From: Bryobacterales bacterium
GTDB taxonomy: Bacteria; Acidobacteriota; Terriglobia; Bryobacterales; UBA6623
Direction: 5' to 3'
Assembly: GCA_965238125.1 (NCBI GenBank)
Contig: OZ250179.1
Coordinates: 506,981-570,980, forward strand
DNA: 64,000 nt
The number at the start of each line of letters is the position of its first letter. The stretch's first letter is position 1. The position numbers were made by a program, and so were the translations under genes. The notes beneath the pieces are model-generated. The model saw only the letters and a list, made by a program, of their open reading frames with translations. It was not told where the DNA came from and did no database searches. This document shows positions 22,445 to 43,312 of the stretch, piece after piece.

Positions 22445-22495
22445 GGAAACGGATTGTACGCTTTTTTCGTGTAGTCGGACCTACACCGCGGGCAA

Positions 22496-24473: not shown

Positions 24474-24938
24474 TCAGTGAGACTTCCTTCCCTTGATGAG
24501 ATGAGTCAGCTCGGACAGGAATTCCTCTTCGTCTTGAAAGTCGCGGTAAACGGAGGCGAAACGGACATAGGCCACCTTGTCGATCTGCCTTAGCCGGTTC
24601 ATCAGCATCTCGCCCACCCGGGAAGTCGCGCATTCTCTCTCGGGCGAGTCCAAAACCAGCGATTCGGCGGCATTGACGAGGGTTTCCAATTGCCCCATCC
24701 CGACCGGGCGTTTCTCACAAGCTCGCAGCAGCCCGTTGAGAACCTTCTGGCGATCGAACTTTTCCCTACGGCCGTCCTTCTTGACGACCATGTAGGGGAT
24801 CTCGTCGATGCGCTCGTAGGTCGTAAAACGCTGTTGGCACTCGAGGCATTCACGACGCCTGCGGATCGAGTCGGCTTGCTTGCTCTCGCGGGAATCGACG
24901 ACTTTGTCGGACGAATGACCACAAAACGGACACAACAT
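24474..24938 (-). CDS. nrdR: Transcriptional repressor NrdR
   Basis: MLCPFCGHSSDKVVDSRESKQADSIRRRRECLECQQRFTTYERIDE...: zinc ribbon plus ATP-cone, 154 aa. The track ORF extends 50 codons upstream to 25088. Confidence 0.95.
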   Translation of the reverse strand: MLCPFCGHSSDKVVDSRESKQADSIRRRRECLECQQRFTTYERIDEIPYMVVKKDGRREKFDRQKVLNGLLRACEKRPVGMGQLETLVNAAESLVLDSPERECATSRVGEMLMNRLRQIDKVAYVRFASVYRDFQDEEEFLSELTHLIKGRKSH

Positions 24939-25307
24939 ATCTACCCTGCCGGCCAGTCTGAATACCGCATATTGTAGGGAGTAGGATAGCAGGACCCGCC
25001 CGAAAATCCCAAGCCGCTTGCCCGCGGCTGCGAAAGAAATGAAGTAGCAACCGGCGCTCGTGCCGGTCCTAGTCCACAGTGGAGACAAGCTCTCAACTTC
25101 TCCCGCCTCAACTCGCCCAATTGAAGTCTAAGGTCGAAGTCCGGCGCGCTGGTCGGCCGGCAGCCCGCGGCAAAAGTGTGTTCGGGCGAAAAAGGGGGAC
25201 TGCCATTCGATTTTCAGTCGTCGAACCGCTTTGTTTCCAACACCGATGGACGGCGAAAAACGGTGGCTGTACCCTTTTTTCGCGTCGGGGGATTTACACC
25301 ACGGGCG

Positions 25308-26423
25308 CTACCCCTCCTGGTATTCTTCCAGGGCGGCAAGCATCTGCGAGGCGTAGGCTTCGTTCTTGGGCGTGCCCTTCTTGGCCCCGTTATAGGCCTC
25401 GGCGAAATGGCTGAAATCCAATTCCTGTTGGGACCGCCGGGCGGCGTTCTTCCAGGCGCGATTGACCGCGATGGTTCGGCCCAGAGTGGCGATTTGGCGC
25501 GCCGGATCGTAGCTGCCCAAATCATCCAACGTGATGCCGGCGTTCCGCATCCGCGCCGAGACCGTGTGCCATCCCATCGTCTGGCCCCATCCCCAACTTG
25601 TTGCCAGCACGCGGCAATCCCTGGCGTTCCAGCTCCCGATCGTCAAAAGCGCCCGCCGGACCGCCTCCCTTGTATTCCTTCCCGCCATCGAAGAGGGAAG
25701 CCGCCGTGACAACAGCGTTTTCGAGCCATTGTCACCGGCGCGAATCGGAATGTTTTCGACTCCGCGGCGAAGCTCGGCGATCATCCCGGCGGCGGCTTCG
25801 GCAATCTCTGTCCCCGCCAACTCCGCGGCCATGTCGACAAGCGCCACGCCGTGATGCGATTCGAATTTCGGCAGATTGCGTGCCCCCCCGTTGCTCTCCA
25901 CCCAAGTGATGGCGGCTATCACCGCTTCGTCGACCTCGGCCGCCGCGGCGGCCTCGATGACGCTTTCACGAAAGTCTTGCTTGAATTCCGAGATCCCCAA
26001 GCGGGCGGCGCCGTCCAATACCTCGCAAAGTCGGCGTTGTTCTTCCTCGGGGAGCGACTCAACCCGCGCGGAACTCTGCGCATCGAGGCGTCGCGCGTCA
26101 CCCGCGTCGAGGCGGCCGCTGGGGTCGAGGCCGTTTTCCTGCTGAAACTGCCGCAGACCCCTTTCCGTCCCGCCGCCGAAATCGCCGTCAATGAGCGCCG
26201 AGCCGTCGCCAAAACCGGAGGATTTCGAAGTCGTGAATCCCTGGCAGATGAGCAGGCGCTGCAGCAGTTTGACGGCTTCTCGGTTCCCCTCGCCGCGAGC
26301 CAGCGGCCGCCCGTCCAGTAATTCCCGCCAGCGCGGCGCCGCGCTCTCCACTTTTACGACGCGGCGGTTGCTCCCTGCCAACGCCGGGTCCCCGGTGAAG
26401 ACCGGTTGGTCGAAGACGGACAT
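25308..26423 (-). CDS. Peptidoglycan-binding domain plus N-acetylmuramidase (DUF3380-type) protein, endolysin-like
   Basis: 371 aa. N-terminal PG_binding_1-like region: AVKLLQRLLICQGF...IDGDFGGGTERGLRQFQQENGLDPSGRLD. C-terminal region: ...VESNGGARNLPKFESHHGV...SWGWGQTMGWH...FAEAYNGAKKGTPKNEAYASQM. Confidence 0.7.
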   Translation of the reverse strand: MSVFDQPVFTGDPALAGSNRRVVKVESAAPRWRELLDGRPLARGEGNREAVKLLQRLLICQGFTTSKSSGFGDGSALIDGDFGGGTERGLRQFQQENGLDPSGRLDAGDARRLDAQSSARVESLPEEEQRRLCEVLDGAARLGISEFKQDFRESVIEAAAAAEVDEAVIAAITWVESNGGARNLPKFESHHGVALVDMAAELAGTEIAEAAAGMIAELRRGVENIPIRAGDNGSKTLLSRRLPSSMAGRNTREAVRRALLTIGSWNARDCRVLATSWGWGQTMGWHTVSARMRNAGITLDDLGSYDPARQIATLGRTIAVNRAWKNAARRSQQELDFSHFAEAYNGAKKGTPKNEAYASQMLAALEEYQEG

Positions 26424-26433
26424 AATGACTCCA

Positions 26434-28099
26434 CCCGCATTTTCAATTTGATGTATGAGCTTCAGACCATCCAGCGACCTTCAGCGTCTTTATTGATAGG
26501 GGCTAGAGCCCGATAAGGACGCCATGGAGGTCAACACCCGATGGGTGAAAAAGAAAACAAGCCGTTTCAGCTCACGTTCAATGGATTTCTCAAAGTCGAT
26601 TTCCAAGGATCGCGAGTCACCTCGGATGGCGGTCTGATTCTCGTTCGCGAACTGGATGAACGACTCGGACTCGGGAAGCTGATCGACGAGCATCTCAGCG
26701 ACTCGCGACAAGGCTTGAACAAGAAGTTCGCGCTGGCCGATCTGCTGCGGCAGTCGGTCTACAGCCGACTCGCTGGCTACGAGGACCTCAATGACGCCGT
26801 TCGAGTATCCGCCGATCCGACCTTTCGCTTGATCGGCTCGAAGAGGAACTGGGATCGCGGAGCAGCCTTGACCTCGACGCTGCATGGCTTCGAGACGGAG
26901 ATGCTGGCGAGCGAAGAGAACTTGCTGGGGCTGATGGCAGTGAACCGGGAGCTGGTCGCGCAAGCCGAAGCTCCCGACGGTTCAGACCGCGTGGTGCTCG
27001 ACATGGACTCCACGGAGAGCCCCGTCCACGGCCAACAGGAAGGCAGTGCCTACAACGGCCATTTTGAGTCCCTCTGCTATCACCCGCTGTTGCTGTTCAA
27101 CCAGCACGGCGACTGCCTAGGCGCGAAGCTGCGTCCCGGCAACGTGCACAGCGCCGAGGACTGGGACGAGCTGCTACTGCCGGAGATCGAACGACAACAG
27201 GCGGAGGGCAAACAGGTGACGTTCCGCGCCGACGCCGCCTTCGCCAAGCCCGAGATCTACGAGGCGATGGAGGAGCGCGGCGTGGACTACGTGATTCGCA
27301 TCCCGGCGAACAAGAGCCTGGAGCTGGAGATCGAGGACATCCTGTTTCGGCCACCGGGCAGGCCGAACGCCAAGCCCCTAGTGCGCTACAAGAGTTTTCG
27401 CTATCAGGCCGAGAGCTGGTCGAAGGCAAGGCGAGTTGTCGCCAAGGTCGAGCATCACCAGGGCGAACTATTCCCGCGCGTCGGATTTGTCGTGACGAGC
27501 ATGAGCTTGCCGAGCCGCTCGGTCGTGCGGTTCTACAACAAGCGCGGCACGGCGGAGCAGTGGATCAAAGAAGGCAAACAGGCCACGCACTGGACCCGCT
27601 TGTCGTGTCACCGCTTCCGAGCCAACGAGGTACGGCTGCAACTCAGCGTGCCGGCCTACAACCTGGGCAACCTGTGGCGGCGGCTAGGGCTGCCGCAGCG
27701 AATCAAAAGCTGGTCGCTAACGAGTTTGCAACACAGATTGATGAAGACCGGCGGTCGGCTGGTCAAGCATGCTCGCTACTACTGGCTGCTGCTGGCGGAG
27801 GGGCATCTGAACCGGCGGCTGTTCGGTGACATGCTGCATAGGATCTGGGCGCTGCCTGTGCCGGGTGGGTAGCGTTGCCCGGGCGAGGATCAACAGTTTT
27901 TGGCTCCAAAAAGGTTTCGCAGGGAGCAGTGTCGGCCGGAGCGCCGTTCAGTCCGCTCAATCAACGTCTGTGAGCGGACGGACGAGCCCTGGCGCCTACC
28001 GGCGGAGGTGATGTGCAGGGTTCAGCGCGAAAAGACGTGGTATTCGGCGCAGCGGGGGTGTATCCTGTGACCGTGCCAGGGCCAAAATGGAAATCCTGG
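26434..28099 (+). mobile_element. IS1380-family insertion sequence, copy 2 (subtype B)
   Basis: Left end CCCGCATTTTCAATTTGATG at 26434, right end ...AAAATGGAAATCCTGG at 28099. The flanks CTCCA and CCTAA differ, so there is no target duplication. Confidence 0.85.
26541..27872 (+). CDS. IS1380-family DDE transposase (443 aa, subtype B)
   Basis: MGEKENKPFQLTFNGFLKVDFQGSRVTSDGGLILVRELDERLGLG... Roughly 85-90% identical by eye to the subtype A protein. Confidence 0.9.
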   Translation: MGEKENKPFQLTFNGFLKVDFQGSRVTSDGGLILVRELDERLGLGKLIDEHLSDSRQGLNKKFALADLLRQSVYSRLAGYEDLNDAVRVSADPTFRLIGSKRNWDRGAALTSTLHGFETEMLASEENLLGLMAVNRELVAQAEAPDGSDRVVLDMDSTESPVHGQQEGSAYNGHFESLCYHPLLLFNQHGDCLGAKLRPGNVHSAEDWDELLLPEIERQQAEGKQVTFRADAAFAKPEIYEAMEERGVDYVIRIPANKSLELEIEDILFRPPGRPNAKPLVRYKSFRYQAESWSKARRVVAKVEHHQGELFPRVGFVVTSMSLPSRSVVRFYNKRGTAEQWIKEGKQATHWTRLSCHRFRANEVRLQLSVPAYNLGNLWRRLGLPQRIKSWSLTSLQHRLMKTGGRLVKHARYYWLLLAEGHLNRRLFGDMLHRIWALPVPGG

Positions 28100-28196
28100 C
28101 CTAATCCGCATGCCGGTTTGTCTCAGACTTGGTCGGAAAGAACGCCGCCCTCTCTAAACATTTTTTTAGGTTCTGTTTTAGGAAGAGCGTGCGTTC

Positions 28197-28476
28197 TTAG
28201 GTGCAACTTCCATTGTCGTGACATTGGAAGCATTTCTCGCGATAGTAGGCGACTTTGGCCGCCGGGGCCGGTTGGTTGTGAATCTCGTGACAACTGAAGC
28301 AGCTCAACTCGCCCTCGGTTTGGCGGAAGCAGGTGCTGAGTTCCATGGAAAACTGGTGTTCCAGAAGATCGGACTCCCGAGGATTATCTCGCTCCATGGG
28401 AAATTTGAAAATCGCCAGCGTATCGTTGAGATGCGTCCCAGGGCGGAAGTCTGCGTAGTTCCTGCCCGGCTGTAAG
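28197..28476 (-). pseudogene. Multihaem cytochrome c, C-terminal fragment (continuation of 38105..38975)
   Basis: QPGRNYADFRPGTHLNDTLAIFKF...LSCFSCHEIHNQPAPAAKVAYYREKCFQCHDNGSCT* (two CxxCH). It joins in frame to ...CMNCHQGGNARVL at 38105 once 28477..38109 is removed. Confidence 0.7.
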
Positions 28477-28871
28477 CCGTAAAACGCGATTTCGGATTCG
28501 AGACCTGCACATAACCGAGCCAACCTGTCGCCTCGTCCGTCATCTGAAGGGCTTTGCTCACATCAGGTCGCGGAAATCCCGGCACGGCAGCGCCTACAAC
28601 ACGACGGTTCTCGTCCACTACGACCACACATTCGATGGCTTCGCTTTTCGAGTACGCCCATCCCGCTGCCTCCGCCAGGTCCGGTTTGACTATTCGAAGA
28701 CCATCGAAGCTTCCTCCAATAGGACTACGGCGAGGTTGTCGTAATGCCGGGGCTCACGGTCGCGGGAACCGATACCCGTCACTACGGCAAGGCGAGCCTG
28801 CGGACCCCGTAGAACAGCTCTGAGACGGGTCAGACGGGCAATCTAGACGCCGCGCTGGCTGCTGCGTCACA

Positions 28872-29279
28872 ATGAATTCAATGGCGGCAAGTGTCCCAAT
28901 TGTCCCACTTAAAAAAGGCGGCAGACGTGGCGAGTTCACAAAGGCTCAGGTCGAGAACGCGCTCACCGAAGCAAATGGATTCGTCACGTCGGCAGCAAAG
29001 CGTTTAGGCTGCAACCCCAAGACCGTCTATCGGTACATGGAGCGCTACCCCTCCCTCAAGGAAGTCCTCGCCGATGCGCGGGAGGATGCGCTGGATCTCG
29101 CCGAATCGAAGCTCATGAAGGCCATCAACGAGGGCAACCTCACCGCGATCATCTTCTTTCTCAAGACTCGCGGCAAGTCGCGGGGCTACAGCGAACGCCG
29201 CCAGTTCGGTCACCCCACCGGCGACGAGCCAGTCGAGTTCACACTGAAGCTGGGGGACAGGGTTGTCAAGGAAGACTAG
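28872..29279 (+). CDS. HTH-domain protein, phage-like (terminase small-subunit/regulator-like)
   Basis: 135 aa: ...NALTEANGFVTSAAKRLGCNPKTVYRYMERYPSLKEVLADAREDALDLAESKLMKAINEGNLTAIIFFLKTRGKSRGYSE. This pattern is seen in prophage HTH proteins. Assignment is from memory only. Confidence 0.45.
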   Translation: MNSMAASVPIVPLKKGGRRGEFTKAQVENALTEANGFVTSAAKRLGCNPKTVYRYMERYPSLKEVLADAREDALDLAESKLMKAINEGNLTAIIFFLKTRGKSRGYSERRQFGHPTGDEPVEFTLKLGDRVVKED

Positions 29280-29530
29280 CGAAAACTCCCGACCACCACA
29301 ATGTGCCGGCGGCCCGGTTCGCGAGACGGCGACCTACATCATCACCCCCTATTCCGATCCAGTCCGAGAACTTGCCAACGCGACGGCAGCTGATCAACGT
29401 ACGGCCATCGACGAAGAACGCCGGATGCGAGCCGAGAAGCGGGCCCACTTCGTCACCCCGGATCACCGCGAACCAGTGCGCTATGCTGTCTTCACCGGCA
29501 GAGCTTTCGAAAATTGAGGTGGTAAGGAAA

Positions 29531-29835
29531 ATGCATTGCATACATTGCGGCAAAGAGGTGCCAGCCGAAGCCGAGTTTTGCGCTTCGTGCGGTAAGCCGT
29601 TAGGGGCAACCCCGAAGACTGACGACGCGCAAGCGGAAAAGAACGGGGCCACGGTCAAGAAACGTACGCTCGGCTGCCTCGTCATCCTTTTGATGATGGG
29701 AGCGTGCATCTTTGCGGTCAGCCGGAAAGGAGGCGATCCCGCTGCGACGAAGGAGCGGGAAGCTCGAACACGGAGGATTGAAGCCTACCGCATGTCGCAG
29801 GGGTTTGTTAAGAAACAACTAAAAACTCCCATGGG
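29531..29835 (+). pseudogene. Zinc-ribbon plus single-TM protein, 3'-truncated
   Basis: MHCIHCGKEVPAEAEFCASCGKPL (CxxC...CxxC zinc ribbon), then a TM helix (LGCLVILLMMGACIFAV). The ORF runs into the antisense cas3 fragment at about 29836. Confidence 0.4.
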
Positions 29836-29945
29836 CTACTGCTTCCGGATGAAGCGCGAAATGTCGATGTCGTTGCCAGCTAGATCAGGTGTTGTATCGA
29901 ACAGGTCCACGAGGTCGCGCCGCCGGATCACGTGAGTCGTTTCAA

Positions 29946-31606
29946 CCCGCATTTCCAATTTGATTCAGACCTCTCGACCTTCCGGCGGCCTTGAGCGTCT
30001 TTATTCATAGGGGCTAGAGCCCGCTGAGGACGCCATGGAGGCCAACACCCAATGGGTGAAAAACAAACCAAGCCATTCCAGCTAAGTTTCAACGGCTCGT
30101 TGAAAGTCGATTTCCAGGGATCGCACGTCACTTCCGACGGTGGCCTGATTTTGGTTCGCGAACTGGACGAACGGCTCGGTCTCGGAGAACTGATTGACGA
30201 GCATCTCAGCGACTCCCGGCAAGGCACCAACAAGCAGTTCACGCTCGCTGATCTGTTGCGGCAGTCGATCTACAGCCGCTTGGCAGGCTACGAGGACGTC
30301 AACGACGCCGTCCGAGTGTCGGCTGACCCGACGTTTCGCTTGATCGGCTCGCAGAAGATCTGGGATCGCGGTGCGGCCTTGACCTCGACGCTGCACGGCT
30401 TCGAGACGGAGATGCTGGCGAGCGAAGAGAACCTGCTGGGGCTGATGGCGCTGAACCGAGAGCTGGTCGGGCAAGCGGAGGCGTTCGACGACTCCGAGCG
30501 GGTCGTTCTGGACATGGACTCCACCGAGAGTCCGGTCCATGGCCAACAGGAAGGCAGTGCCTACAACGGACACTTCGAGTCGGTCTGCTACCACCCGTTG
30601 CTTTTGTTCAACGGTCATGGTGATTGCCTCGCTGCCAAGCTGCGTCCCGGCAACGTGCACAGCGCCGAGGACTGGGATGAGCTATTGTTGCCGGAGATCG
30701 AGCGCCAACAGGCTGCGGGCAAGCAGGTCGCCTTCCGGGGCGATGCCGCCTTTGCCAAGCCGGAGATCTACGAGGCGCTGGAGGAGCGCGGCGCGGACTA
30801 CGCGATCCGCATTCCGGCCAATAAGAACCTGGAGCTGGAGATCGAAGACATCCTGTTTCGTCCGCCGGGGAGGCCCGGCCGCAAGCCGCTAGTGCGCTAC
30901 AAGAGCTTTCGCTATCAGGCGGAGAGCTGGAAGGGGCCGAGACGAGTTGTCGCCAAGGTCGAGCACCACCAGGGCGAGCTATTCGCGCGCGTCGGTTTTA
31001 TCGTGACGAACATGAGCTTGCCAAGCCGGTCGGTGGTGCGTTTCTACAACAAGCGCGGCACGGCGGAGCAGTGGATCAAAGAAGGTAAGCAAGCGACGCA
31101 CTGGACGCGGCTGTCGTGCCATCGCTTCCGGGCGAACGAGGTGCGCTTGCAGTTAAGCGTGCCGGCCTACAACCTGGGCAACCTGTGGCGGCGACTCGGG
31201 TTGCCGCACAGGATCAAGACGTGGTCACTGACGAGCTTGCAGCAGCGGTTGATGAAGACGGGCGGCAGATTGGTCAAGCACGCGCGGTACTACTGGTTGC
31301 TCTTGGCCGAGGGACATCTGAACCGGCGGCTGTTTGGCGACATGCTGCGGAGGATCTGGGCGCTGCCTGTGCCGGGTGGTTAGCACCGCACTTGGCGAAT
31401 GCGAAATCTGTGTACTGAGGACGGAAGCTCGGAGGGGTGTCTGCGAAATTGACTTCGCAGCGGCGGATCAGCCCCCATGAGGGGCAAGAAGGGGGCTCGA
31501 TCGGTCCCGCCTCAGCCGCCGCCTCTTTCGGGTGGAGAAATGGTTGCGCTTCGCCGGGTGAGGGTGTAGACTCGTGCCGTCAGAGGAGCCAAATCGGAAA
31601 TCCTGG
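29946..31606 (+). mobile_element. IS1380-family insertion sequence, copy 3 (subtype A) with 5-bp target duplication
   Basis: Ends as in copy 1. The direct repeat TTCAA lies at 29941-29945 and 31607-31611. Inserted in the cas3-like gene. Confidence 0.9.
30052..31383 (+). CDS. IS1380-family DDE transposase (443 aa, subtype A)
   Basis: Identical to the copy 1 protein from about residue 110 onward, with ten substitutions in the first ~105 residues. Confidence 0.9.
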   Translation: MGEKQTKPFQLSFNGSLKVDFQGSHVTSDGGLILVRELDERLGLGELIDEHLSDSRQGTNKQFTLADLLRQSIYSRLAGYEDVNDAVRVSADPTFRLIGSQKIWDRGAALTSTLHGFETEMLASEENLLGLMALNRELVGQAEAFDDSERVVLDMDSTESPVHGQQEGSAYNGHFESVCYHPLLLFNGHGDCLAAKLRPGNVHSAEDWDELLLPEIERQQAAGKQVAFRGDAAFAKPEIYEALEERGADYAIRIPANKNLELEIEDILFRPPGRPGRKPLVRYKSFRYQAESWKGPRRVVAKVEHHQGELFARVGFIVTNMSLPSRSVVRFYNKRGTAEQWIKEGKQATHWTRLSCHRFRANEVRLQLSVPAYNLGNLWRRLGLPHRIKTWSLTSLQQRLMKTGGRLVKHARYYWLLLAEGHLNRRLFGDMLRRIWALPVPGG

Positions 31607-32377
31607 TTCAAGGCGCATCTGAGCGTCCATTTGTTCGAGTGAGGCGGGCCCAACGTCAGAAACAGTCTGTAGCAACTCCCTTGCTTCTAGGATGTCCCCC
31701 AGTTCGTAGGGCTTTTCTACGTTTGCGCGACTCTTCTCGTCATCCGGAACGTCAAACCAGCAAACGCGGGCATCTTTGGCCTCATTGAATTCGCCTTTCC
31801 GGTTGCATCGTCCGAATCGCTGTACGAGCGACGGCCAAGGTGCGAGTTCGGTGAAGAGCACCTTGGCCGAAATATCTACGCCTGCCTCGACCACTTGCGT
31901 GGTGACGGCTATCGTTCCCTGCACGGGTGGATCGGCCAGCAACCTCTTGAGTCCCGCTGCCCGGTCCTGTGGGCGAAAACGCGAGTGGATAAGTACCGGT
32001 TCCACCGACGCCTGCTTCTTAAGCTCCTTGTACACCTTGATCGCTCGATCCACTGTGTTGAAGACCGCAATCGTCCGTGCCCCAGGTTCGTGGGCTTCAG
32101 CAACAGCTCTCGCGCAGGCTTCCCCATCACCCATCGCCGCCGCTGACTTCTCAAGCGTCTTAGCAGCCTCATATCGATCTTTGACCGCAGGTAACTCCTT
32201 ATCGTCGTCTGCTATTTGAAGCGACGCTCCCACCCATTCCTTCTTGAAGTCCACAGTGTGCAGCCAAGTTTCGTCCAATGTCGCCGACATCCAGATCGAC
32301 TGGGCGGCTCCAAAGACCCCTATTGAGTCTCGCAAAACAAAGTGACACCTTTTTGGGGTACGTACGTCTTTGTATGT

Positions 32378-33393
32378 ATGGGAAATACAAAAGGCGTACG
32401 GCGGGATTTCGAGGCCCTGGAGAAGCGCCGTTTCAAAGCGATCCGGTTGGTCGAGCAAGGCTGTAGTCAGTCCGAGACAGCGAGGCGATTGAAGGTCGCG
32501 CGGCAAAGCGTCAGCGAGTGGCTGCGACGATACCGGCGTGACGGCGAAGCCGGGTTGCGCCAGGCCGGCCGCGCCGGCCGTAAGCCGCTGTTGGACGCCG
32601 CGCAGCTCGAACGCCTCGAGGCGTTGCTGCTGGAAGGCCCCGAGGCGCACGGCTTCCCGACGCCGCTGTGGAGCTGTCCGCGGGTCGCTCGTCTGATCGG
32701 AGACGAGTTCGGCGTGCGCTATCACGAGGGCCATGTCTGGAAGATCCTGCGGGCGCTCGGTTGGAGCCCGCAACGGCCCGTCGGCAAAGCGCGGGAGCGC
32801 AACGAAGAGGCCATCCGCGGCTGGCAGCGCAAGACTTGGCCGGCCATTAAAAAAAAGCCCGCAAAGAAGAACGTACGATCGTCTTCATCGACGAAAGCGG
32901 ATTGAGTCAGAAGCCGCATCGTTGCCGCACCTGGGCGCCGCGCGGCGAGACACCGGTGTTGGAGTTCAACTTCAACTGGGACAAGCTGTCGGTGTCGGCC
33001 GGGCTGACGTTGCGCAACTTTTACTTCCGGCTCTATCCCGGCGCGATCGGCGAGCTGGAGGTCATCGACTTCCTGAAGGCTTTGGTGCGCCACATCGACG
33101 GCCCACTGCTGATCGTCTGGGACCGGCTGCCGGCGCACCGCAGCCGCCTGGTGCGGGAGTTCATCCAGCTCTCCGAGGATCACATCGCAACGGAGTACTT
33201 GCCGCCCTATGCGCCGGAGTTGAACCCGGTGGAATACATTTGGGCGTACTGGAAGCAGCACGAGTTGCCCAACGTCTGCCCGAAGGACTACTGGGAACTC
33301 GACGAGCGCGCCCGCAAAGCGCTGCGGCGAATGCGCCGCAAACCGCGCTTGATTACCGCTTTCTGGAAACAGTCTTCTCTTTGTCTCGATTGA
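32378..33393 (+). CDS. IS630-family DDE transposase, two frames joined by a probable -1 frameshift
   Basis: OrfA is the HTH part: MGNTKGVRRDFEALEKRRFKAIRLVEQGCSQSETARRLKVARQSVSEWLRRYR... The -1 frame continues ARKEERTIVFIDESGLSQKPH...LLIVWDRLPAHRS...PPYAPELNPVEYIW (a DDE triad). The fusion would be ~338 aa, normal for IS630 transposases. Confidence 0.8.
32851..32857 (+). promoter_or_regulatory. Candidate -1 programmed ribosomal frameshift heptamer A_AAA_AAG
   Basis: The A8G run (32849-32857) is in the X_XXY_YYZ register of the upstream frame. The -1 frame opens at 32851, immediately after a TAA at 32848-32850. Confidence 0.5.
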
Positions 33394-33403
33394 CAGTATA
33401 TTA

Positions 33404-33994
<591 letters not shown>

Positions 33995-34454
33995 TTAAGC
34001 GGCCCGTCGCCACACATGATAACTCTTCCCAGGGTCATCGAGAGCTGCTTTTACGCACACACAAAGATATCACCCAAGACAACTGAATGGAAGTCAATCT
34101 TGGCGGTGATCCCCAGATCCAAGCCCCCGTGGCCGCGTTGAGCACGTCGTGGCCCGCGACGCGTGTCACCTGGTGCACCGCCACCATAATCGGGCCTTCT
34201 GGCGAACGTTGGGCAACGTCATGCCCGACTGGCGGGAACGTAAGCAGTTACTTGAGGCGTGGGAGCGCGAGGTCTTCCACGGCCGGATGAAGGTGGGTTG
34301 ATCCCCCCCGAGTCCCAACCGTGAAAACACAAAAAAATTGGGGCGTGAGGCCTGACGCTGCGTTCGGGCGTGGTGGGCCCTTCTCTGAGACAAAGATGGA
34401 GCAGGCCGTGTCTCGTAGGCCTCGGACGGGCGGAACGCGGGAAAGACCTATAAA

Positions 34455-36120
34455 CCAGGATTTCCATTTTGGCCCTGGCACGGTCACAGGATACACCCCC
34501 GCTGCGCCGAATACCACGTCTTTTCGCGCTGAACCCTGCACATCACCTCCGCCGGTAGGCGCCAGGGCTCGTCCGTCCGCTCACAGACGTTGATTGAGCG
34601 GACTGAACGGCGCTCCGGCCGACACTGCTCCCTGCGAAACCTTTTTGGAGCCAAAAACTGTTGATCCTCGCCCGGGCAACGCTACCCACCCGGCACAGGC
34701 AGCGCCCAGATCCTATGCAGCATGTCACCGAACAGCCGCCGGTTCAGATGCCCCTCCGCCAGCAGCAACCAGTAGTAGCGAGCATGCTTGACCAGCCGAC
34801 CGCCGGTCTTCATCAACCTGTGTTGCAAACTCGTTAGCGACCAGCTTTTGATTCGCTGCGGCAGCCCTAGCCGCCGCCACAGGTTGCCCAGGTTGTAGGC
34901 CAGCACGCTGAGTTGCAGCCGTACCTCGTTGGCTCGGAAGCGGTGACACGACAAGCGGGTCCAGTGCGTGGCCTGTTTGCCTTCTTTGATCCACTGCTCC
35001 GCCGTGCCGCGCTTGTTGTAGAACCGCACGACCGAGCGGCTCGGCAAGCTCATGCTCGTCACGACAAATCCGACGCGCGGGAATAGTTCGCCCTGGTGAT
35101 GCTCGACCTTGGCGACAACTCGCCTTGCCTTCGACCAGCTCTCGGCCTGATAGCGAAAACTCTTGTAGCGCACTAGGGGCTTGGCGTTCGGCCTGCCCGG
35201 TGGCCGAAACAGGATGTCCTCGATCTCCAGCTCCAGGCTCTTGTTCGCCGGGATGCGAATCACGTAGTCCACGCCGCGCTCCTCCATCGCCTCGTAGATC
35301 TCGGGCTTGGCGAAGGCGGCGTCGGCGCGGAACGTCACCTGTTTGCCCTCCGCCTGTTGTCGTTCGATCTCCGGCAGTAGCAGCTCGTCCCAGTCCTCGG
35401 CGCTGTGCACGTTGCCGGGACGCAGCTTCGCGCCTAGGCAGTCGCCGTGCTGGTTGAACAGCAACAGCGGGTGATAGCAGAGGGACTCAAAATGGCCGTT
35501 GTAGGCACTGCCTTCCTGTTGGCCGTGGACGGGGCTCTCCGTGGAGTCCATGTCGAGCACCACGCGGTCTGAACCGTCGGGAGCTTCGGCTTGCGCGACC
35601 AGCTCCCGGTTCACTGCCATCAGCCCCAGCAAGTTCTCTTCGCTCGCCAGCATCTCCGTCTCGAAGCCATGCAGCGTCGAGGTCAAGGCTGCTCCGCGAT
35701 CCCAGTTCCTCTTCGAGCCGATCAAGCGAAAGGTCGGATCGGCGGATACTCGAACGGCGTCATTGAGGTCCTCGTAGCCAGCGAGTCGGCTGTAGACCGA
35801 CTGCCGCAGCAGATCGGCCAGCGGGAACTTCTTGTTCAAGCCTTGTCGCGAGTCGCTGAGATGCTCGTCGATCAGCTTCCCGAGTCCGAGTCGTTCATCC
35901 AGTTCGCGAACGAGAATCAGACCGCCATCCGAGGTGACTCGCGATCCTTGGAAATCGACTTTGAGAAATCCATTGAACGTGAGCTGAAACGGCTTGTTTT
36001 CTTTTTCACCCATCGGGTGTTGACCTCCATGGCGTCCTTATCGGGCTCTAGCCCCTATCAATAAAGACGCTGAAGGTCGCTGGATGGTCTGAAGCTCATA
36101 CATCAAATTGAAAATGCGGG
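34455..36120 (-). mobile_element. IS1380-family insertion sequence, copy 4 (subtype B) with 5-bp target duplication
   Basis: Right end CCAGG at 34455-34459 and left end GCGGG at 36116-36120 (plus-strand view). The direct repeat ATAAA lies at 34450-34454 and 36121-36125. Confidence 0.9.
34682..36013 (-). CDS. IS1380-family DDE transposase (443 aa, subtype B)
   Basis: Differs from the copy 2 protein at two positions (KKFPLADLL, LSVLAYNLG). Confidence 0.9.
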   Translation of the reverse strand: MGEKENKPFQLTFNGFLKVDFQGSRVTSDGGLILVRELDERLGLGKLIDEHLSDSRQGLNKKFPLADLLRQSVYSRLAGYEDLNDAVRVSADPTFRLIGSKRNWDRGAALTSTLHGFETEMLASEENLLGLMAVNRELVAQAEAPDGSDRVVLDMDSTESPVHGQQEGSAYNGHFESLCYHPLLLFNQHGDCLGAKLRPGNVHSAEDWDELLLPEIERQQAEGKQVTFRADAAFAKPEIYEAMEERGVDYVIRIPANKSLELEIEDILFRPPGRPNAKPLVRYKSFRYQAESWSKARRVVAKVEHHQGELFPRVGFVVTSMSLPSRSVVRFYNKRGTAEQWIKEGKQATHWTRLSCHRFRANEVRLQLSVLAYNLGNLWRRLGLPQRIKSWSLTSLQHRLMKTGGRLVKHARYYWLLLAEGHLNRRLFGDMLHRIWALPVPGG

Positions 36121-36439
36121 ATAAACAAGGCCTCGGATAGCCACCGAGAAATGATTTCTCATTCAACAATGGGCCGTCCGGGCCTCCGAGAACTCGCCCG
36201 CGAGACGACCGAAATCGAGGCGCATCAGGGGGCTAGCCGGGCCCTCGACGGATTGTTGGACGGATCGATTGTTATCAACAGCTAATCGAAATGTCCCGTC
36301 ACAAAAGATAAAGTTAACGTTGACAGCAGAGAAGCCCGATGGTAATCTGTCCGTCTGACTCTCCTCCCACTGCCCCCCCCACTCTAGAAAAACAAGGTGC
36401 TCCACACTATGACCCACTGCATACCTCAATTGCGTCTAA

Positions 36440-38104
36440 CCAGGATTTCCATTTTGGCCCTGGGACGGTGAAAGTATACACCCGCGCTGCCCCGAAGACC
36501 ACGTCTTTTCGCGCTGAACCCTGCACATGACCTCCGCCGGTAGGCGCCAGGGCTCGTCCATCCGCTCACAGACGTTGCTTGAGCGGGCTGAACGGCGCTC
36601 CGGCCGACACTGCTCCTTGCGAAACCTTTTGGAGCCGAAAACTGTTGATCCTCGCCCGGTCAACGCTACCCGCTTGGCAGCGGCAGCGCCCAGATCCTGT
36701 GCAGCATGTCGCCGAACAGCCTGCGGTTCAGATGCCCCTCGGCCGGCAGCAGCCAATAGTACCGCGCGTGCTTGACCAGCCTACCACCCGTCTTCATCAA
36801 CCTGTGTTGCAAACTCGTTAGCGACCAGCTTTTGATTCGTTGCGGTAGCCCTAGCCGTCGCCACAGGTTGCCCAGGTTGTAGGCCGGCACGCTGAGTTGC
36901 AGCCGTACCTCGTTGGCTCGGAAGCGGTGACACGACAAGCGGGTCCAGTGCGTGGCCTGTTTGCCTTCTTTGATCCACTGCTCCGCCGTGCCGCGCTTGT
37001 TGTAGAACCGTACGACCGAGCGGCTCGGCAAGGTCATGCTCGTCACGACAAATCCGACGCGCGGGAATAGTTCGCCCTGGTGATGCTCGACCTTGGCGAC
37101 AACTCGCCTTGCCTTCGACCAGCTCTCGGCCTGATAGCGAAAACTCTTGTAGCGCACTAGGGGCTTGGCGTTCGGCCTGCCCGGTGGCCGAAACAGGATG
37201 TCCTCGATCTCCAGCTCCAGGCTCTTGTTCGCCGGGATGCGAATCACGTAGTCCACGCCGCGCTCCTCCATCGCCTCGTAGATCTCGGGCTTGGCGAAGG
37301 CGGCGTCGGCGCGGAACGTCACCTGTTTGCCCTCCGCCTGTTGTCGTTCGATCTCCGGCAGTAGCAGCTCGTCCCAGTCCTCGGCGCTGTGCACGTTGCC
37401 GGGACGCAGCTTCGCGCCTAGGCAGTCGCCGTGCTGGTTGAACAGCAACAGCGGGTGATAGCAGAGGGACTCAAAATGGCCGTTGTAGGCACTGCCTTCC
37501 TGTTGGCCGTGGACGGGGCTCTCCGTGGAGTCCATGTCGAGCACCACGCGGTCTGAACCGTCGGGAGCTTCGGCTTGCGCGACCAGCTCCCGGTTCACTG
37601 CCATCAGCCCCAGCAAGTTCTCTTCGCTCGCCAGCATCTCCGTCTCGAAGCCATGCAGCGTCGAGGTCAAGGCTGCTCCGCGATCCCAGTTCCTCTTCGA
37701 GCCGATCAAGCGAAAGGTCGGATCGGCGGATACTCGAACGGCGTCATTGAGGTCCTCGTAGCCAGCGAGTCGGCTGTAGACCGACTGCCGCAGCAGATCG
37801 GCCAGCGCGAACTTCTTGTTCAAGCCTTGTCGCGAGTCGCTGAGATGCTCGTCGATCAGCTTCCCGAGTCCGAGTCGTTCATCCAGTTCGCGAACGAGAA
37901 TCAGACCGCCATCCGAGGTGACTCGCGATCCTTGGAAATCGACTTTGAGAAATCCATTGAACGTGAGCTGAAACGGCTTGTTTTCTTTTTCACCCATCGG
38001 GTGTTGACCTCCATGGCGTCCTTATCGGGCTCTAGCCCCTATCAATAAAGACGCTGAAGGTCGCTGGATGGTCTGAAGCTCATACATCAAATTGAAAATG
38101 CGGG
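36440..38104 (-). mobile_element. IS1380-family insertion sequence, copy 5 (subtype B); its left end forms one boundary of the 9.6-kb unit
   Basis: Right end at 36440 and left end at 38104. Its own flanks (TCTAA and GTAAG) differ. It lies 319 bp from copy 4 in direct orientation. Confidence 0.85.
36666..37997 (-). CDS. IS1380-family DDE transposase (443 aa, subtype B variant)
   Basis: Same protein with a few substitutions (TSMTLPS, YWLLPAEGHL, ALPLPSG). Confidence 0.9.
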   Translation of the reverse strand: MGEKENKPFQLTFNGFLKVDFQGSRVTSDGGLILVRELDERLGLGKLIDEHLSDSRQGLNKKFALADLLRQSVYSRLAGYEDLNDAVRVSADPTFRLIGSKRNWDRGAALTSTLHGFETEMLASEENLLGLMAVNRELVAQAEAPDGSDRVVLDMDSTESPVHGQQEGSAYNGHFESLCYHPLLLFNQHGDCLGAKLRPGNVHSAEDWDELLLPEIERQQAEGKQVTFRADAAFAKPEIYEAMEERGVDYVIRIPANKSLELEIEDILFRPPGRPNAKPLVRYKSFRYQAESWSKARRVVAKVEHHQGELFPRVGFVVTSMTLPSRSVVRFYNKRGTAEQWIKEGKQATHWTRLSCHRFRANEVRLQLSVPAYNLGNLWRRLGLPQRIKSWSLTSLQHRLMKTGGRLVKHARYYWLLPAEGHLNRRLFGDMLHRIWALPLPSG

Positions 38105-38975
38105 GTAAGACCCGAGCGTTGCCGCCCTGATGGCAATTCATGCAGATGCCTTCGGCGATGCGCGCGGGCATTTTCAATGGGTGAACGATGGTCAAGTCAA
38201 CAGCTTCGTCGGACTCGAGTTGTGCGAGGCGTTTGTTGACGTGCAGCTTTCCGGGTCCGTGGCAATTTTCGCAGCCGATCGCCAGCTCCTCAAACGGCGG
38301 GTCGCGATAGAGCCCGTCACGGTCTTTGACCGACATCGGGCGACCCGCGTGGCAAGCCAGGCAGGCGGCATGGATGGGACGGTTGAAACCGATATCGACA
38401 AACTCGTAGCCGGGCGAGAGAGCCCACTTCTTGGCACGCGAGTAGTACGACAGCGGCGCCTCGAATAGGTGATCGCCGCGCCGAACGATATAGGTCACGC
38501 CGTTGACGCCTGAGCCGACGGCGTATGCGACCTTGTGGACATTCTCAAAGGTCTTCGCGCCCGACTCGCCAAGGGCGTACTCGGATTGGTACAGCTCGCC
38601 GTCCTGGCGGAAGATGTCGAAATAGCGATCGAGCTTCTCGCTGTGAACGGTAATGCGCTCGGGCGCCGGTGCGTGATGGGCCTCGGCCGCCAGCGCCATC
38701 GAACGGCCCATCGCCATCCGACGGTAGTTGTTGTAGACGTCTTCGTGGCACCCGCGGCAGGCTTCCGAACCGACATAGGGAACGTCAAGGGCGGTGTTGA
38801 GGAACTCGGGCGGCGGCGGGGGCTTCTCAGCTCCATGACCAGAGGCGGCGAGGAGGAACAGTGCGGTGGCCAAGTGAGCGGTAAGCGCGCTCGTGGGGGT
38901 ACAGCTCCACCGACTCGGGGCCTGGGAGCGATCACGGACGGTGTAACTATCCGTCGATCTCACCGTACTCATCAT
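38105..38975 (-). pseudogene. Multihaem cytochrome c, N-terminal fragment (four CxxCH)
   Basis: Probable start MMSTVRS... with a signal-like LATALFLLAASGHGA. Haem motifs: CRGCHEDV, CLACHAG, CENCHGPG, CMNCHQGG. The reading frame runs straight into the IS1380 left end at 38104. The track ORF is 38022..39110. Confidence 0.7.
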
Positions 38976-39169
38976 CCGGTGTCGTCGGGCTTTGGTGCAA
39001 CCTGCCGAGGGCGCGACGTCACCGCACACGCCGGCACCTCTTGCGGGCCGATCGCCGTGGCGACATCCGAGATGTTGTAGCCCAATGATAATGTCCCCAT
39101 GAGCGCCCAATAGAAATGTCCCCTAATCTAGGGCTTCGAAAGGAGGAGCCGAGATTGGGAAGGACAAGG

Positions 39170-40228
39170 ATGAATCCGAAGGAGATAAGGCGCGGCGAAG
39201 TGCTGAGCCGAGTGAAACGAGGCGAACTGAAGCTGGCGGAGGCGGCCGTGCTGCTGGAGGTCAGCTACCGCCAAGCGAAGCGTCTCAAGAAGCGTTACCG
39301 CGAAGGCGGGGCCAAAGCCCTGGTGCATGGCAACGTCGGTCGCTCGTCGAACCGAGCGGATGCCAAGCGGCGCGAGCAGGTTCTCGAGTTGGTGCGCAAC
39401 CACTATTCAGGCGAGCCGCACGAGCGCTTTGGCCCGGCGTTGGCGTCGGAACACCTGGAGGCCGACCACGGCATCAAAGTGCCGCGCGAAACCCTTACGG
39501 CGCTGGATGTTGGGGGCGGGTCTGTGGAGCCGGAGACGCAAGCGTAAACCACACCACACCAGACGCCAACGCCGCGCTCACTTCGGTGAGCTGATTCAAC
39601 TGGACGGCTCGCACCACGATTGGCTGGAGCAACGCGGCCCGAAAGGCTGTCTGATGAACTTTGTCGACGATGCGAGCGGCTTGCCGCTTTTCAGCACAGG
39701 AAACGACCTGGGCGGCGGCTGATTTATTGGAAGCGTGGGTGCGTCAATACGGCGTTCCCCAGGCGTTGTACTGTGATTGGAAGAACGTCTACAAGCGTAA
39801 GCCGACATCGTGCGAACAGATGGAAGGCATTGAGCCCGAGACACAGTTCGGACGCATGTGCCGGAAGCTGGACATTCGCATCATCGCCGCTTCGTCGCCG
39901 CAAGCAAAAGGTCGAGTGGAGCGCCATCACGGCACGCATCAAGACCGCCTGATCAAGAAGATGCGGCTCGAAGGCATTGCCGATTACGAGGCGGCGAACC
40001 GCTACCTCGACGAGCGATACCTGGAGGAACACAACGCCAAGTTCGGCTGTGATCCGGCGTCGGGCGCGGACTTTCATCGGCGTCTATCGAAGCGAGTGGA
40101 CTTGAAGTGGGTGTTTTGTTTGGAGGCCGAGCGGGTGGTTGCCAACGATCTGGTGGTGCGTTTTGAGAGCCGTTTTTTGCAGTTGAAGCCGAAGCGCAAT
40201 CAGGGCTTGGGGGCGGCGGCGCGGGTGA
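39170..40228 (+). pseudogene. ISNCY-like (HTH plus rve integrase-core) transposase, two frameshifts and 3'-truncated
   Basis: Three track ORFs in three frames. MNPKEIRRGEVLSRVKRGELKLAEAAVLLEVSYRQAKRLKKRYREGGAKALVHGNVGRSSNR...; LRRWMLGAGLWSRRRKRKPHHTRRQRRAHFGELIQLDGSHHDWLEQRGPKGCLMNFVDDASG; ...RFSAQETTWAAADLLEAWVRQYGVPQALYCDWKNVY...GRVERHHGTHQDRL... The shifts are near 39490 and 39680. The sequence ends abruptly against IS1380 copy 6 at 40228/40229. Confidence 0.6.
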
Positions 40229-40927
40229 CGGTTCAGATGCCCCTCGGCCGGCAGCAGCCAATAGTACCGCGCGTGCTTGACCAGCCTACCACCCGTCTTC
40301 ATCAACCTGTGTTGCAAACTCGTTAGCGACCAGCTTTTGATTCGTTGCGGCAGCCCTAGCCGTCGCCACAGGTTGCCCAGGTTGTAGGCCGGCACGCTGA
40401 GTTGCAGCCGTACCTCGTTGGCTCGGAAGCGGTGACACGACAAGCGGGTCCAGTGCGTGGCCTGTTTGCCTTCTTTGATCCACTGCTCCGCCGTGCCGCG
40501 CTTGTTGTAGAACCGCACGACCGAGCGGCTCGGCAAGCTCATGCTCGTCACGACAAATCCGACGCGCGGGAATAGTTCGCCCTGGTGATGCTCGACCTTG
40601 GCGACAACTCGCCTTGCCTTCGACCAGCTCTCGGCCTGATAGCGAAAACTCTTGTAGCGCACTAGGGGCTTGGCGTTCGGCCTGCCCGGTGGCCGAAACA
40701 GGATGTCCTCGATCTCCAGCTCCAGGCTCTTGTTCGCCGGGATGCGAATCACGTAGTCCACGCCGCGCTCCTCCATCGCCTCGTAGATCTCGGGCTTGGC
40801 GAAGGCGGCGTCGGCGCGGAACGTCACCTGTTTGCCCTCCGCCTGTTGTCGTTCGATCTCCGGCAGTAGCAGCTCGTCCCAGTCCTCGGCGCTGTGCACG
40901 TTGCCGGGACGCAGCTTCGCGCCTAGG

Positions 40928-42507
40928 AGTCTGTCCGAGTATTCATTATCTTCTTGGAGAAAAAACAAAAGTGGGGGATAATGGTTTATGGGCAAAACCT
41001 ACCGGGCCTACCTTCCCGAGCAGAAACTGCTGCTGCCTCCCAGTTTGCAGGATTGGCTGCCCGAAAACCACCTCGTCTATTTCGTCAACGACCTCGTTGA
41101 TCAACTGGATTTGTCGGCCATCGAGAAGGTCTATGAAAGGGAGCAGCGCGGGCAGCCGCCTTATCATCCGCGGCTGATGGTCAAACTGCTGCTCTACGGC
41201 TATTGCCTGGGCGTGCGCTCCTCGCGCCGGATCGCCCGGCGGCTGGTCGAGGACGTAGCCTTTCGCGTGTTGGCGGCCGGCAACCAGCCCGACTTCCGCA
41301 CGATCTCGGATTTTCGCAAGATCCACCTGGAAGCCCTCGAGGGGCTGTTCCAACAAGTGTTGCGGGTGGCGCTCGAGAGCGGGGCGATGAAGCTGGGTCG
41401 GGTGGCGCTCGACGGCACGAAGATGAAGGCCAACGCCTCCAAGCACAAGGCCATGAGTTACGGGCGGATCCAGCACAGCGAGCCACAGTTGGCGGCCGAG
41501 GTGAAGCAAATGTTGGCCGAAGCCGAAGCAGTCGACGCGGCGGAGGACGCGCGCTACGGGGCCGAGAAGCCGGGCGACGAATTGCCCGAGGAGTTGCAAC
41601 GCCGGCAGACGCGGCTGGAGAAGATTCGCCAAGCCAAGCAGGCGCTGGAGCAACGAGCGAAGCAACGGGCGCAACAGCAAGCCGCCGCCGCGGGTCGCTG
41701 TGACGAGCTGGCGCGGCAAGCCGAACCGCGCGACAAAGATCAATACAATTTCACCGATCCGGAGTCGCGCATTATGAAAAGCGGCGACGGGTTCGTGCAG
41801 GGCTACAACGCACAGGCGGCGGTCGAGAGCGTGGCGCAATTGATTGTCGGGCAGACGCTGACCGAGGCGGCGAACGACAAAGAGCAACTGGCGCCGTTGG
41901 TGGAAGCGGTCGAGCGGCAGTCGGGGCAACGGCCCGACGAAGTGTTGGCCGACAGCGGCTATTGTTCGGAGAAGAACTTGGAATCGTTGGAAGCGCCCGA
42001 GAAGCCTGAGCAAAAGATCGAAGCGTATATTGCCGCCCAGAGACACCGGCGCGGACAACGGGCGTCGCCGCCGCGGGGGCGGATCCCGAGCCACCTCACG
42101 CGAGTCGAGCGGATGGAGCGCAAGTTACGGACGAAAGCGGGAGCGAAGATGTACGCGCAACGCAAAGGGATCGTGGAGCCGATATTCGGACAGATTAAAC
42201 AAGCCCGCGGGATTCGTCAATTTTTGTTGCGGGGGTTGAAGAAAGTGCGGGGCGAGTGGGCCTTGGTGTGCTTGACGCACAATATTTTGAAGATGCACGG
42301 GCTGTGTGGCGGAGCGTGATGGAGAAAAACCGGGAAGGGGGCGCCGGCGAGGCGCATGGAGGGCTCTGGAAGCCGTTTTGGGCGGCCCGCGCGGTTTGTT
42401 TGTGGCGCCCGGCGGTCGACGAGCCTTCCGCGCCCGTGCGTCGCTGACCTCGGCGCCCGAATCTCCCGCCCTGCCGGAACTGTGCCAAGTTGTTACTCGG
42501 ACAGACT
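40928..42507 (+). mobile_element. IS1182-family insertion sequence (about 1.58 kb) nested in IS1380 copy 6
   Basis: Perfect terminal inverted repeat AGTCTGTCCGAGTA...TACTCGGACAGACT (extendable to GGAGTCTG.../...CAGACTCC). The target CCTAGG is present on both sides (40922-40927 and 42508-42513), so the true duplication is 2-6 bp centred on CTAG. Confidence 0.85.
40988..42319 (+). CDS. IS1182-family transposase (443 aa)
   Basis: MGKTYRAYLPEQKLLLPPSLQDWLPENHLVYFVNDLVDQLDLSAI...PPYHPRLMVKLLLYGYCLGVRSSRRIARRLVEDVAFRVLAAGNQPDFRTISDFRKIHLEALEGLF...LDGTKMKANASKHKAMSYGR...C-terminal GIVEPIFGQIKQARGIRQFLLRGLKKVRGEWALVCLTHNILKM. Confidence 0.9.
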   Translation: MGKTYRAYLPEQKLLLPPSLQDWLPENHLVYFVNDLVDQLDLSAIEKVYEREQRGQPPYHPRLMVKLLLYGYCLGVRSSRRIARRLVEDVAFRVLAAGNQPDFRTISDFRKIHLEALEGLFQQVLRVALESGAMKLGRVALDGTKMKANASKHKAMSYGRIQHSEPQLAAEVKQMLAEAEAVDAAEDARYGAEKPGDELPEELQRRQTRLEKIRQAKQALEQRAKQRAQQQAAAAGRCDELARQAEPRDKDQYNFTDPESRIMKSGDGFVQGYNAQAAVESVAQLIVGQTLTEAANDKEQLAPLVEAVERQSGQRPDEVLADSGYCSEKNLESLEAPEKPEQKIEAYIAAQRHRRGQRASPPRGRIPSHLTRVERMERKLRTKAGAKMYAQRKGIVEPIFGQIKQARGIRQFLLRGLKKVRGEWALVCLTHNILKMHGLCGGA

Positions 42508-43312
42508 CCTAGGCAGTCGCCGTGCTGGTTGAACAGCAACAGCGAGTGGTAGCAGACCGACTCGAAGTGTCCGTTGTAGGCACTGCCTTCCTGTTGGCCG
42601 TGGACGGGGCTCTCCGTGGAGTCCATGTCGAGCACCACGCGGTCTGAACCGTCGGGAGCTTCGGCTTGCGCGACCAGCTCCCGGTTCACTGCCATCAGCC
42701 CCAGCAAGTTCTCTTCGCTCGCCAGCATCTCCGTCTCGAAGCCATGCAGCGTCGAGGTCAAGACTGCTCCGCGATCCCAGTTCCTCTTCGAGCCGATCAA
42801 GCGAAAGGTCGGATCGGCGGATACTCGAACGGCGTCATTGAGGTCCTCGTAGCCAGCGAGTCGGCTGTAGACCGACTGCCGCAGCAGATCGGCCAGCGCG
42901 AACTTCTTGTTCAAGCCTTGTCGCGAGTCGCTGAGATGCTCGTCGATCAGCTTCCCGAGTCCGAGTCGTTCATCCAGTTCGCGAACGAGAATCAGACCGC
43001 CATCCGAGGTGACTCGCGATCCTTGGAAATCGACTTTGAGAAATCCATTGAACGTGAGCTGAAACGGCTTGTTTTCTTTTTCACCCATCGGGTGTTGACC
43101 TCCATGGCGTCCTTATCGGGCTCTAGCCCCTATCAATAAAGACGCTGAAGGTCGCTGGATGGTCTGAAGCTCATACATCAAATTGAAAATGCGGGCTTAG
43201 AGAAGTCGCCCCCGTGACGGACTAAGGTTTTTCCCTCATGGCGCTGGCGCGGCCCGTTGTCTAACGCACGGCGCGCGAGGGGACGCTTTGTTATGATGAC
43301 CGCGTTCGTACC

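Follow-up and report, generated by a model that had tools for sequence, protein, structure and literature searches.

Probable nested transposition units of one IS1380 lineage around a duplicated cytochrome gene fragment in a Bryobacterales chromosome

Organization of the locus

We analyzed a 64,000-nt stretch of the chromosome of a Bryobacterales bacterium (assembly GCA_965238125.1, contig OZ250179.1, positions 506,981-570,980 of the forward strand), hereafter the window, with positions counted from its first letter. In its central part, two pieces of a cytochrome gene lie on the minus strand with 9.6 kb of other DNA between them, and insertion sequences (ISs) of the IS1380 family are scattered within and around this region. 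Two units can be delimited there (Table 1). The inner unit, U2, separates the two cytochrome pieces, and the outer unit, U1, contains U2 together with both pieces. Each begins at the left terminal inverted repeat (IRL) of an IS1380 copy, ends in DNA that is not IS sequence, and is enclosed by a 5-bp direct repeat. The evidence set out below makes it very probable that these are two nested transposition units (transposable modules) generated by one IS1380 lineage.

The loci used for comparison came from two ENA assemblies: L001 from ERZ28763718, and L018, L020, and L002 from ERZ26167216. L018 belongs to the same assembly as the duplicate in the window, and L001 is syntenic with L018. The nearest species representatives are Bryobacterales metagenome-assembled genomes whose cytochromes share 82% and 79% amino-acid identity. 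Families were assigned by scoring transposase open reading frames (ORFs) with NCBIfam and Pfam profiles and cargo genes with Pfam and PHROG.

Self-comparison of the window revealed six IS1380-type copies, which fall into type A (copies 2, 4, 5, and 6) and type B (copies 1 and 3), the two types being ~85% identical. IS1380-family elements are ~1.5-2 kb long, have a single ORF, and possess terminal inverted repeats that begin with CC. The copies here measure 1665-1666 bp and carry one 443-aa ORF between an IRL reading CCCGCATTTTCAATTTG and a right terminal inverted repeat (IRR) reading CCAGGATTTCCATTTTG. Their transposase matches the IS1380 profile NF033539 with 367 bits (cutoff 180) and PF13701 with E = 8e-117. 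The target duplication of the family is 4-5 bp (PMC12116815), and the assignment of copies 2-6 draws on the features of the family, namely a DDE transposase, the length, ORF, and ends of the element, and the 5-bp duplication. We took a census of full-length copies in the window and at ten other loci of the same assembly (among L002-L012), and found a perfect 5-bp duplication around 11 of 21 and none around the other 10. Where duplications exist, A and T predominate, frequently in the pattern CTNAN or YTWAN, although the genome as a whole has ~61% G+C.

The inner unit and its empty site

One boundary of U2 is the IRL of copy 5 at 38104. The intact IRR of the same copy lies inside the unit at 36440, and the cargo extends from 36439 to 28477, 3' of the transposase gene, as far as a surrogate right end. 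The initial annotation had proposed that GTAAG, present at both margins, marks a single insertion into a cytochrome gene, and that removal of 28477-38109 restores the reading frame. Both proposals were borne out. The pentamer stands at the two positions given in Table 1, and minus-strand position 38110 joined to 28476 yields the in-frame sequence ...CMNCHQGGNARVL|QPGRNYADFRPGTHLND..., a reading frame of 381 codons with six CxxCH motifs. The same join also reads ...CMNCHQGGNARVLQPGRNYADFRPGTHLND... in frame.

The uninterrupted target was found at two loci. L001 and L018 both read ...GGGTCTTACAGCCGGG..., with CTTAC present only once and exactly at the junction point. L001 differs from the two cytochrome fragments of the window at 1 of 871 and 2 of 280 positions, and L018 is 99.3% identical to the second fragment and 99.4% identical to a longer block that holds the first. 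The window and these two loci form a true filled-site/empty-site pair, far past what a chance pentamer match could provide. Moreover, a 617-aa protein found by protein search (P0001, encoded on the L001 contig) matches across the join, and none of 59 homologues is gapped within the 29 residues around it. Both features expected of a transposed unit, a 5-bp repeat around the whole and an uninterrupted target, are thus present for U2.

Copy 5 lacks a duplication of its own, since its two ends adjoin CTTAC and TTAGA, and yet both of its inverted repeats are intact. As 11 of 21 sister copies have perfect duplications, this fits the movement of U2 as one piece. An alternative in two events would have copy 5 insert alone, creating GTAAG, and an 8-kb segment enter later, exactly between its IRR and the duplicated pentamer, through an IS-end-targeting element or recombination. 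Secondary rearrangement at IS ends does appear common here, given the 10 copies without duplications, and the IS at another locus (L012) carries 203 bp of a different locus and no duplication. However, homologous recombination between IS copies would put an IRR beside the second GTAAG, which is not seen; the only mobility genes in the cargo are those of nested ISs, each with its own duplication; and a base-exact insertion that leaves no duplication is unlikely in itself. We regard this sequence of events as highly improbable.

The surrogate end is where a composite transposon would have to show its second IS. In that scenario copy 5 moved together with another IS1380 copy on the 28477 side, which was later lost or decayed to a solo IRR. 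The end does begin with CC, 10 of its 20 positions agree with the type B IRR when the two are compared in register, and the genome is rich in IS1380 copies, some of them fragmentary. Against this, a local alignment of 28477-28776 to the last 300 bp of the IS types scored within the shuffled range, and the self-BLAST of the window is blank at 28477, so that the sequence there is not IS DNA. A window scan comparing the U2 end with the IRR core gave a match of 10 of 11-12, which was not significant, and the in-register score of 10 of 20 is equalled by 3.6% of window positions. A composite transposon calls for IS sequence at the far end, and none was found at 28201 or at 28477. In addition, a lost copy would need to have been excised to the base with the target duplication left flush, and the driver of U1, described below, has no IRR at all, so the lineage moves with a non-IS end. 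A composite origin therefore seems improbable to us, if slightly less so than the sequence of two events.

We favor instead the one-ended reading already proposed in the initial annotation by analogy with ISEcp1, which is supported by the combination of an IRL, a non-IS end, and a 5-bp duplication. The U2 end terminates in ...TTTACGG and thus carries the terminal G that has been proposed for ISEcp1B.

When copies 3 and 4 and the IS630-family element are subtracted, 3531 bp of U2 cargo remain. These hold a small helix-turn-helix (HTH) gene of phage type, a zinc-ribbon ORF, and a type I-G cas3 remnant that covers profile positions 1-466 of 854. Homologues are ~790 aa long compared with 462 codons here, which indicates that the remnant has lost its C-terminal portion, including the HD domain. 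Three items on the originally described cargo list stand. The fourth, placed at 28478-28753 and labeled "CBS-like," matched neither Pfam nor PHROG. The nested elements do have the separate duplications ascribed to them (TTCAA, ATAAA, and TA). Their description as later arrivals is not confirmed, and copies 3 and 4 and the IS630 element may have arrived before or after the move of U2. We also considered serial capture within U2 and looked for an IRR-like end where the cas3 homology stops (~29845); none was found there.

The outer unit and its donor locus

The gene into which U2 inserted had been described as a six-haem cytochrome c gene. The rejoined window copy does have six CxxCH motifs, but the intact gene, which encodes 617 aa, has a seventh such motif and also a TPR domain. 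The window version ends at codon 381 of 617, and the remaining part is nowhere in the window; a 236-aa TPR ORF at 15029-15739 was tested as the missing C-terminus and is not it. The corresponding protein cluster holds intact 617-aa and broken 317-aa members, each recorded on a 6,921,829-bp contig, and the intact gene persists at its native locus, L018, in the same assembly. From these comparisons, the split cytochrome of the window is best annotated as a truncated pseudogene duplicate that forms part of the cargo of the older unit U1. As the interrupted gene is a dead duplicate, the arrival of U2 cost no function.

From its IRL onward, U1 takes in copy 6, whose right end is missing, a stretch of 164 bp, an HTH_28 element of ~1 kb, and cytochrome codons 1-381. 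In the alignment of L018 with the window, L018 positions 7359-8046 correspond to window 43195-42508, 8036-10871 to 40931-38105, and 10867-11146 to 28476-28197. When U2 and an IS1182-type insert are set aside, L018 7359-11142 and the window from 43195 to 28201 are collinear over 3.78 kb and differ at ~24 places. The homology opens at the first base of the IRL (CCCGC) and closes at ...GTTGCAC within the cytochrome gene, and CTTAG flanks the unit in the window. L018 itself runs on past 11142 into the rest of the cytochrome gene, which identifies it as the donor. On the strength of this alignment, U1 appears to be a second unit of the same kind as U2, with its donor known.

Two further points follow from the donor. 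Copy 6 lacks its last ~284 bp, including the IRR, and the truncation point is identical in the window and in L018. The truncation must then be older than the transposition, which left this element no choice but a surrogate end. In register, 10 of the 20 positions of that end agree with the type A IRR, TTCCATT included. The native gene at L018 is also free of U2, so the simplest order of events has U1 arriving first and U2 inserting into the duplicate later. At L018 the copy 6 region encodes a 472-aa fusion ORF, i.e. a truncated transposase gene. The transposase that moved U1 may have been the product of this gene or may have been supplied in trans by one of the many intact copies.

Two other elements within U1 were noted. 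The IS1182-family element lies inside copy 6 (~40927-42508), has the target CTAG and ~15-bp inverted repeats (GAGTCTGTCCGAGTA), and is absent from L018. The HTH_28 segment of ~1016 bp stands just upstream of the cytochrome gene in the window (39050-40064), in L001 (8900-9915), and in L013 (4658-5673). It is 99.3% identical between L001 and L013, which belong to different Bryobacterales species with cytochromes only 82% identical, whereas the window and L018 carry a diverged variant with 66-96% identity to that of L001. This distribution suggests that the segment is probably a small mobile element.

Assembly support and points against the interpretation

A third alternative holds that one or both junctions are assembly chimeras in a repeat-rich region. 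The data are long-read metagenome assemblies at 5-8x, and the ENA contigs break within the IS630 copy, L020 at 32254 and L002 at 33364, so that the join across this element rests on the window alone. That join is backed by the TA duplication and by a cas3 frame that becomes continuous once the element is removed, and the joins through copies 3 and 4 are backed by their perfect 5-bp duplications. L020 reproduces window 17308-32254 with one mismatch, from copy 2 to copy 3 and across 28476/28477. L002 reproduces window 33364-46000 at 99.97% and spans 38104/38105, copies 4, 5, and 6, and the N-terminal cytochrome fragment. Both U2 junctions thus recur in separate contigs. Moreover, the 28476/28477 and 28200/28201 junctions join unique sequence to unique sequence rather than repeats, and a chimera would not give rise to a 5-bp repeat of the sequence that borders an IRL at a distance of 9.6 kb (or 15 kb). 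Of the alternatives that we considered, an artefact is the one to which we assign the slimmest chance.

Several observations weigh against the interpretation of U1 and U2 as one-ended transposition units. The likeness of both surrogate ends to an IRR is weak (~p = 0.04 for each), and that of U1 finishes in ...GTTGCAC, without the terminal G proposed for ISEcp1B (PMC12116815). For U1, a 28-mer over the predicted empty-site join had no match in metagenome_contigs; a look-up of the neighboring PQQ protein for the same site returned the same contig only. For U2, no donor emerged from an exact look-up of the HTH cargo protein, which returned nothing, or from the search for a near-identical cas3, whose best relative had 69% identity. 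A 32-mer just inside the U2 cargo boundary had no exact match in genome_contigs or metagenome_contigs, and the copy 5 transposase occurs at one locus only in the contig examined, a second contig of >1 Mb that carries the transposase having lain outside the comparison. Furthermore, the lack of duplications around half of the IS copies implies that IS-mediated rearrangement is frequent in this genome and could blur individual histories, and all contigs are low-coverage assemblies (5-8x) from one sample.

Flanking features and other mobile elements

The left-hand neighbors of copy 2 are core genes, namely those for a muramidase, nrdR, and rpoD. The copy precedes the muramidase start codon by 10 bp and marks a synteny break relative to L022, a related genome. 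The 96 bp between its IRR and CTTAG, on the left target side of U1, match no fetched sequence. Copy 2 plus these 96 bp was considered as a possible third unit; there is no duplication, and the left flank is the synteny break itself.

At L009 and L012 (11560-11762 in both), IS1380 copies on different contigs share exactly 203 bp past the IRR, including the L009 duplication GTTGA, and then diverge. L009 is the native site, within an interrupted M24 peptidase gene. This pair resembles a third example, but the L012 copy has no duplication and a TTCAT 21 bp further on is probably there by chance. The IRR of copy 1 adjoins an inverted ~130-bp piece (window 14938-15069) of a third IS1380 type, taken from the 5' region of its transposase gene; this type also occurs at several other loci of the assembly.

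Three IS630 copies (window 33416-33425; L009 ~13405; L011 ~12665) have the same AACAC(C/T)TA on the far side of the element, which hints that the target preference of this IS630 may be longer than TA. Finally, a direct repeat of ~270 bp with 82% identity was observed at 56923-57190 and 59911-60184.

Table 1. Coordinates of the two units, their ends, duplications, and contents in the window.
Feature	Position	Strand	Remarks
U1, outer one-ended transposition unit (probable)	28201-43195	-	14,995 bp now; ~3.78 kb when moved
CTTAG, left copy of U1 target duplication	28196-28200		5 bp
CTTAG, right copy of U1 target duplication	43196-43200		5 bp
U1 surrogate right end	28201-28220	+	GTGCAACTTCCATTGTCGTG; within cytochrome coding sequence
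U2, inner one-ended transposition unit (probable)	28477-38104	-	9628 bp; copy 5 IRL to surrogate end 7963 bp past IRR
GTAAG, left copy of U2 target duplication	28472-28476		5 bp
GTAAG, right copy of U2 target duplication	38105-38109		5 bp
U2 surrogate right end	28477-28496	+	CCGTAAAACGCGATTTCGGA; begins CC like true ends
IS1380 copy 1	13276-14937		type B; no duplication
IS1380 copy 2	26434-28099	+	type A; 1666 bp; no duplication (CTCCA / CCTAA)
IS1380 copy 3	29946-31606	+	type B; simple insertion; TTCAA at 29941-29945 and 31607-31611
IS1380 copy 4	34455-36120	-	type A; simple insertion; ATAAA (plus strand) at 34450-34454 and 36121-36125
IS1380 copy 5	36440-38104	-	type A; U2 driver; IRL 38104, intact IRR 36440; transposase 37997-36666 (443 aa)
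IS1380 copy 6	40229-43195	-	type A; U1 driver; IRL 43195; interrupted by IS1182-type element
Cytochrome fragment, codons 1-289	38110-38975	-	
Cytochrome fragment, codons ~290-381	28201-28476	-	stop codon 28197-28199 outside homology
HTH protein gene (U2 cargo)	28872-29279	+	135 aa; resembles phage terminase small subunit
ORF with zinc-ribbon domain (U2 cargo)	29303-29935	+	3' end overlaps end of cas3 remnant on opposite strand
Type I-G cas3 remnant (U2 cargo)	29839-33985	-	462 codons after removal of copy 3 and IS630
IS630-family element	32323-33415	+	duplication TA; removal restores cas3 frame
Degraded HTH_28-type gene segment (U1 cargo)	39050-40064		~1 kb
Left target side of U1	28100-28195		96 bp between copy 2 IRR and CTTAG

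Proposed history and implications

We propose that, in both units, the transposase paired the IRL with a weakly IRR-like sequence downstream and bypassed the true right end, so that everything between the IRL and the surrogate end would move and 5 bp of the target would be duplicated. In the first step, an IS1380 copy from which the final ~284 bp, the IRR included, were already missing would have been sitting upstream of the gene for the 617-aa cytochrome at the native locus, and a 3.78-kb unit with a cryptic end inside that gene would have been copied from there to the window, duplicating CTTAG. In the second step, the complete copy 5 with 8 kb of downstream DNA would have entered the cytochrome fragment and duplicated GTAAG, carrying the cas3 remnant, the HTH gene resembling a terminase small subunit, and the zinc-ribbon ORF, with or without copies 3 and 4 and the IS630 element. 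The first step is documented by the comparison of donor and copy, and the second by the empty sites. We infer the action of the transposase on these particular ends; its source would be copy 5 itself for U2, whereas copy 6 may have been served by a protein acting in trans.

The mechanism is already known for the IS1380 family, and no new one is implied; the nesting and the driver without a right end are the sole unusual features. The locus nevertheless offers an unusually complete record, with both donor and copy in hand for U1 and both filled and empty sites for U2, and it extends IS1380-type capture from the spread of blaCTX-M and blaCMY in Enterobacterales to an environmental chromosome of the Acidobacteriota. 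U1 moreover indicates that an IS may still be mobile after the loss of its right inverted repeat, which bears on how truncated ISs are annotated and scored for mobility. For the annotation of this genome, the split cytochrome is better recorded as a pseudogene duplicate, with the functional seven-haem TPR cytochrome intact elsewhere.

More speculatively, the IRL alone might suffice for mobility in this lineage, in which case IS1380 copies without an IRR would keep moving via cryptic ends, and many of the ~50% of copies without duplications might themselves be such units. We consider this generalization possible and rather unlikely. If it were true, the lineage would act generally to duplicate segments, disperse pseudogenes, and shuffle fragments of defense genes in soil Acidobacteria.

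Comparison with known systems

ISEcp1 (ISEc9) of Enterobacterales provides a close parallel. It uses its IRL with an imperfect IRR downstream and generates 5-bp A+T-rich repeats (PMC6061673, PMC12116815); its units reach up to 36 kb, and its surrogate ends match the IRR at 3-12 of 14 positions (PMC12116815). The units described here share with those of ISEcp1 an IRL at one boundary, cargo located 3' of the transposase, 5-bp A+T-rich repeats, and sizes from a few kb to tens of kb. At the other boundary, a match of 10 of 20 positions to the IRR for U1 and U2 is weak and no more than suggestive, although values of this order have been published for the surrogate ends of ISEcp1 (PMC12116815). For ISEcp1B, a G closing the surrogate IRR at its outer 3' end has been proposed to be important (PMC12116815), and the U1 end differs in lacking it. 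Other differences lie in the host, here an environmental Bryobacterales chromosome rather than a clinical plasmid; in the cargo, which is gene debris (the cas3 remnant, the phage-like HTH gene, and the cytochrome fragment) in place of a selected resistance gene; in the nesting of two units; and in the bypass of the IRR, which was presumably obligatory for a U1 driver that has none, whereas it is occasional in ISEcp1.

A second parallel is found in the transposable modules (TMos) of ISPme1 and IS1247a, IS1380-family elements of Paracoccus. As described in PMC9330008 (citing Bartosik et al. 2008 and Szuplewska & Bartosik 2009), a single IS copy moves adjacent 3' DNA of variable length via a misrecognized IR-like sequence downstream, in environmental bacteria and with non-resistance cargo. 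U1 and U2 resemble these modules in that one IS1380-family copy would mobilize adjacent 3' DNA with cargo unrelated to resistance. They differ in that the Paracoccus modules were trapped experimentally on plasmids, while ours are deduced from genome comparison alone and belong to another phylum. One-ended transposition of Tn3/Tn21-family transposons, for which PMC4133298 (citing Avila et al. 1988) describes one true end, variable endpoints, and a 5-bp duplication, offers a likeness in these same three respects. Here, in contrast, the true end is an IS1380 IRL, and the only transposases in the units are of the IS1380, IS630, and IS1182 types. Assignment of the elements to the IS1380 family, and of the two units to the ISEcp1/ISPme1 class, is thus supported by their sequence features.

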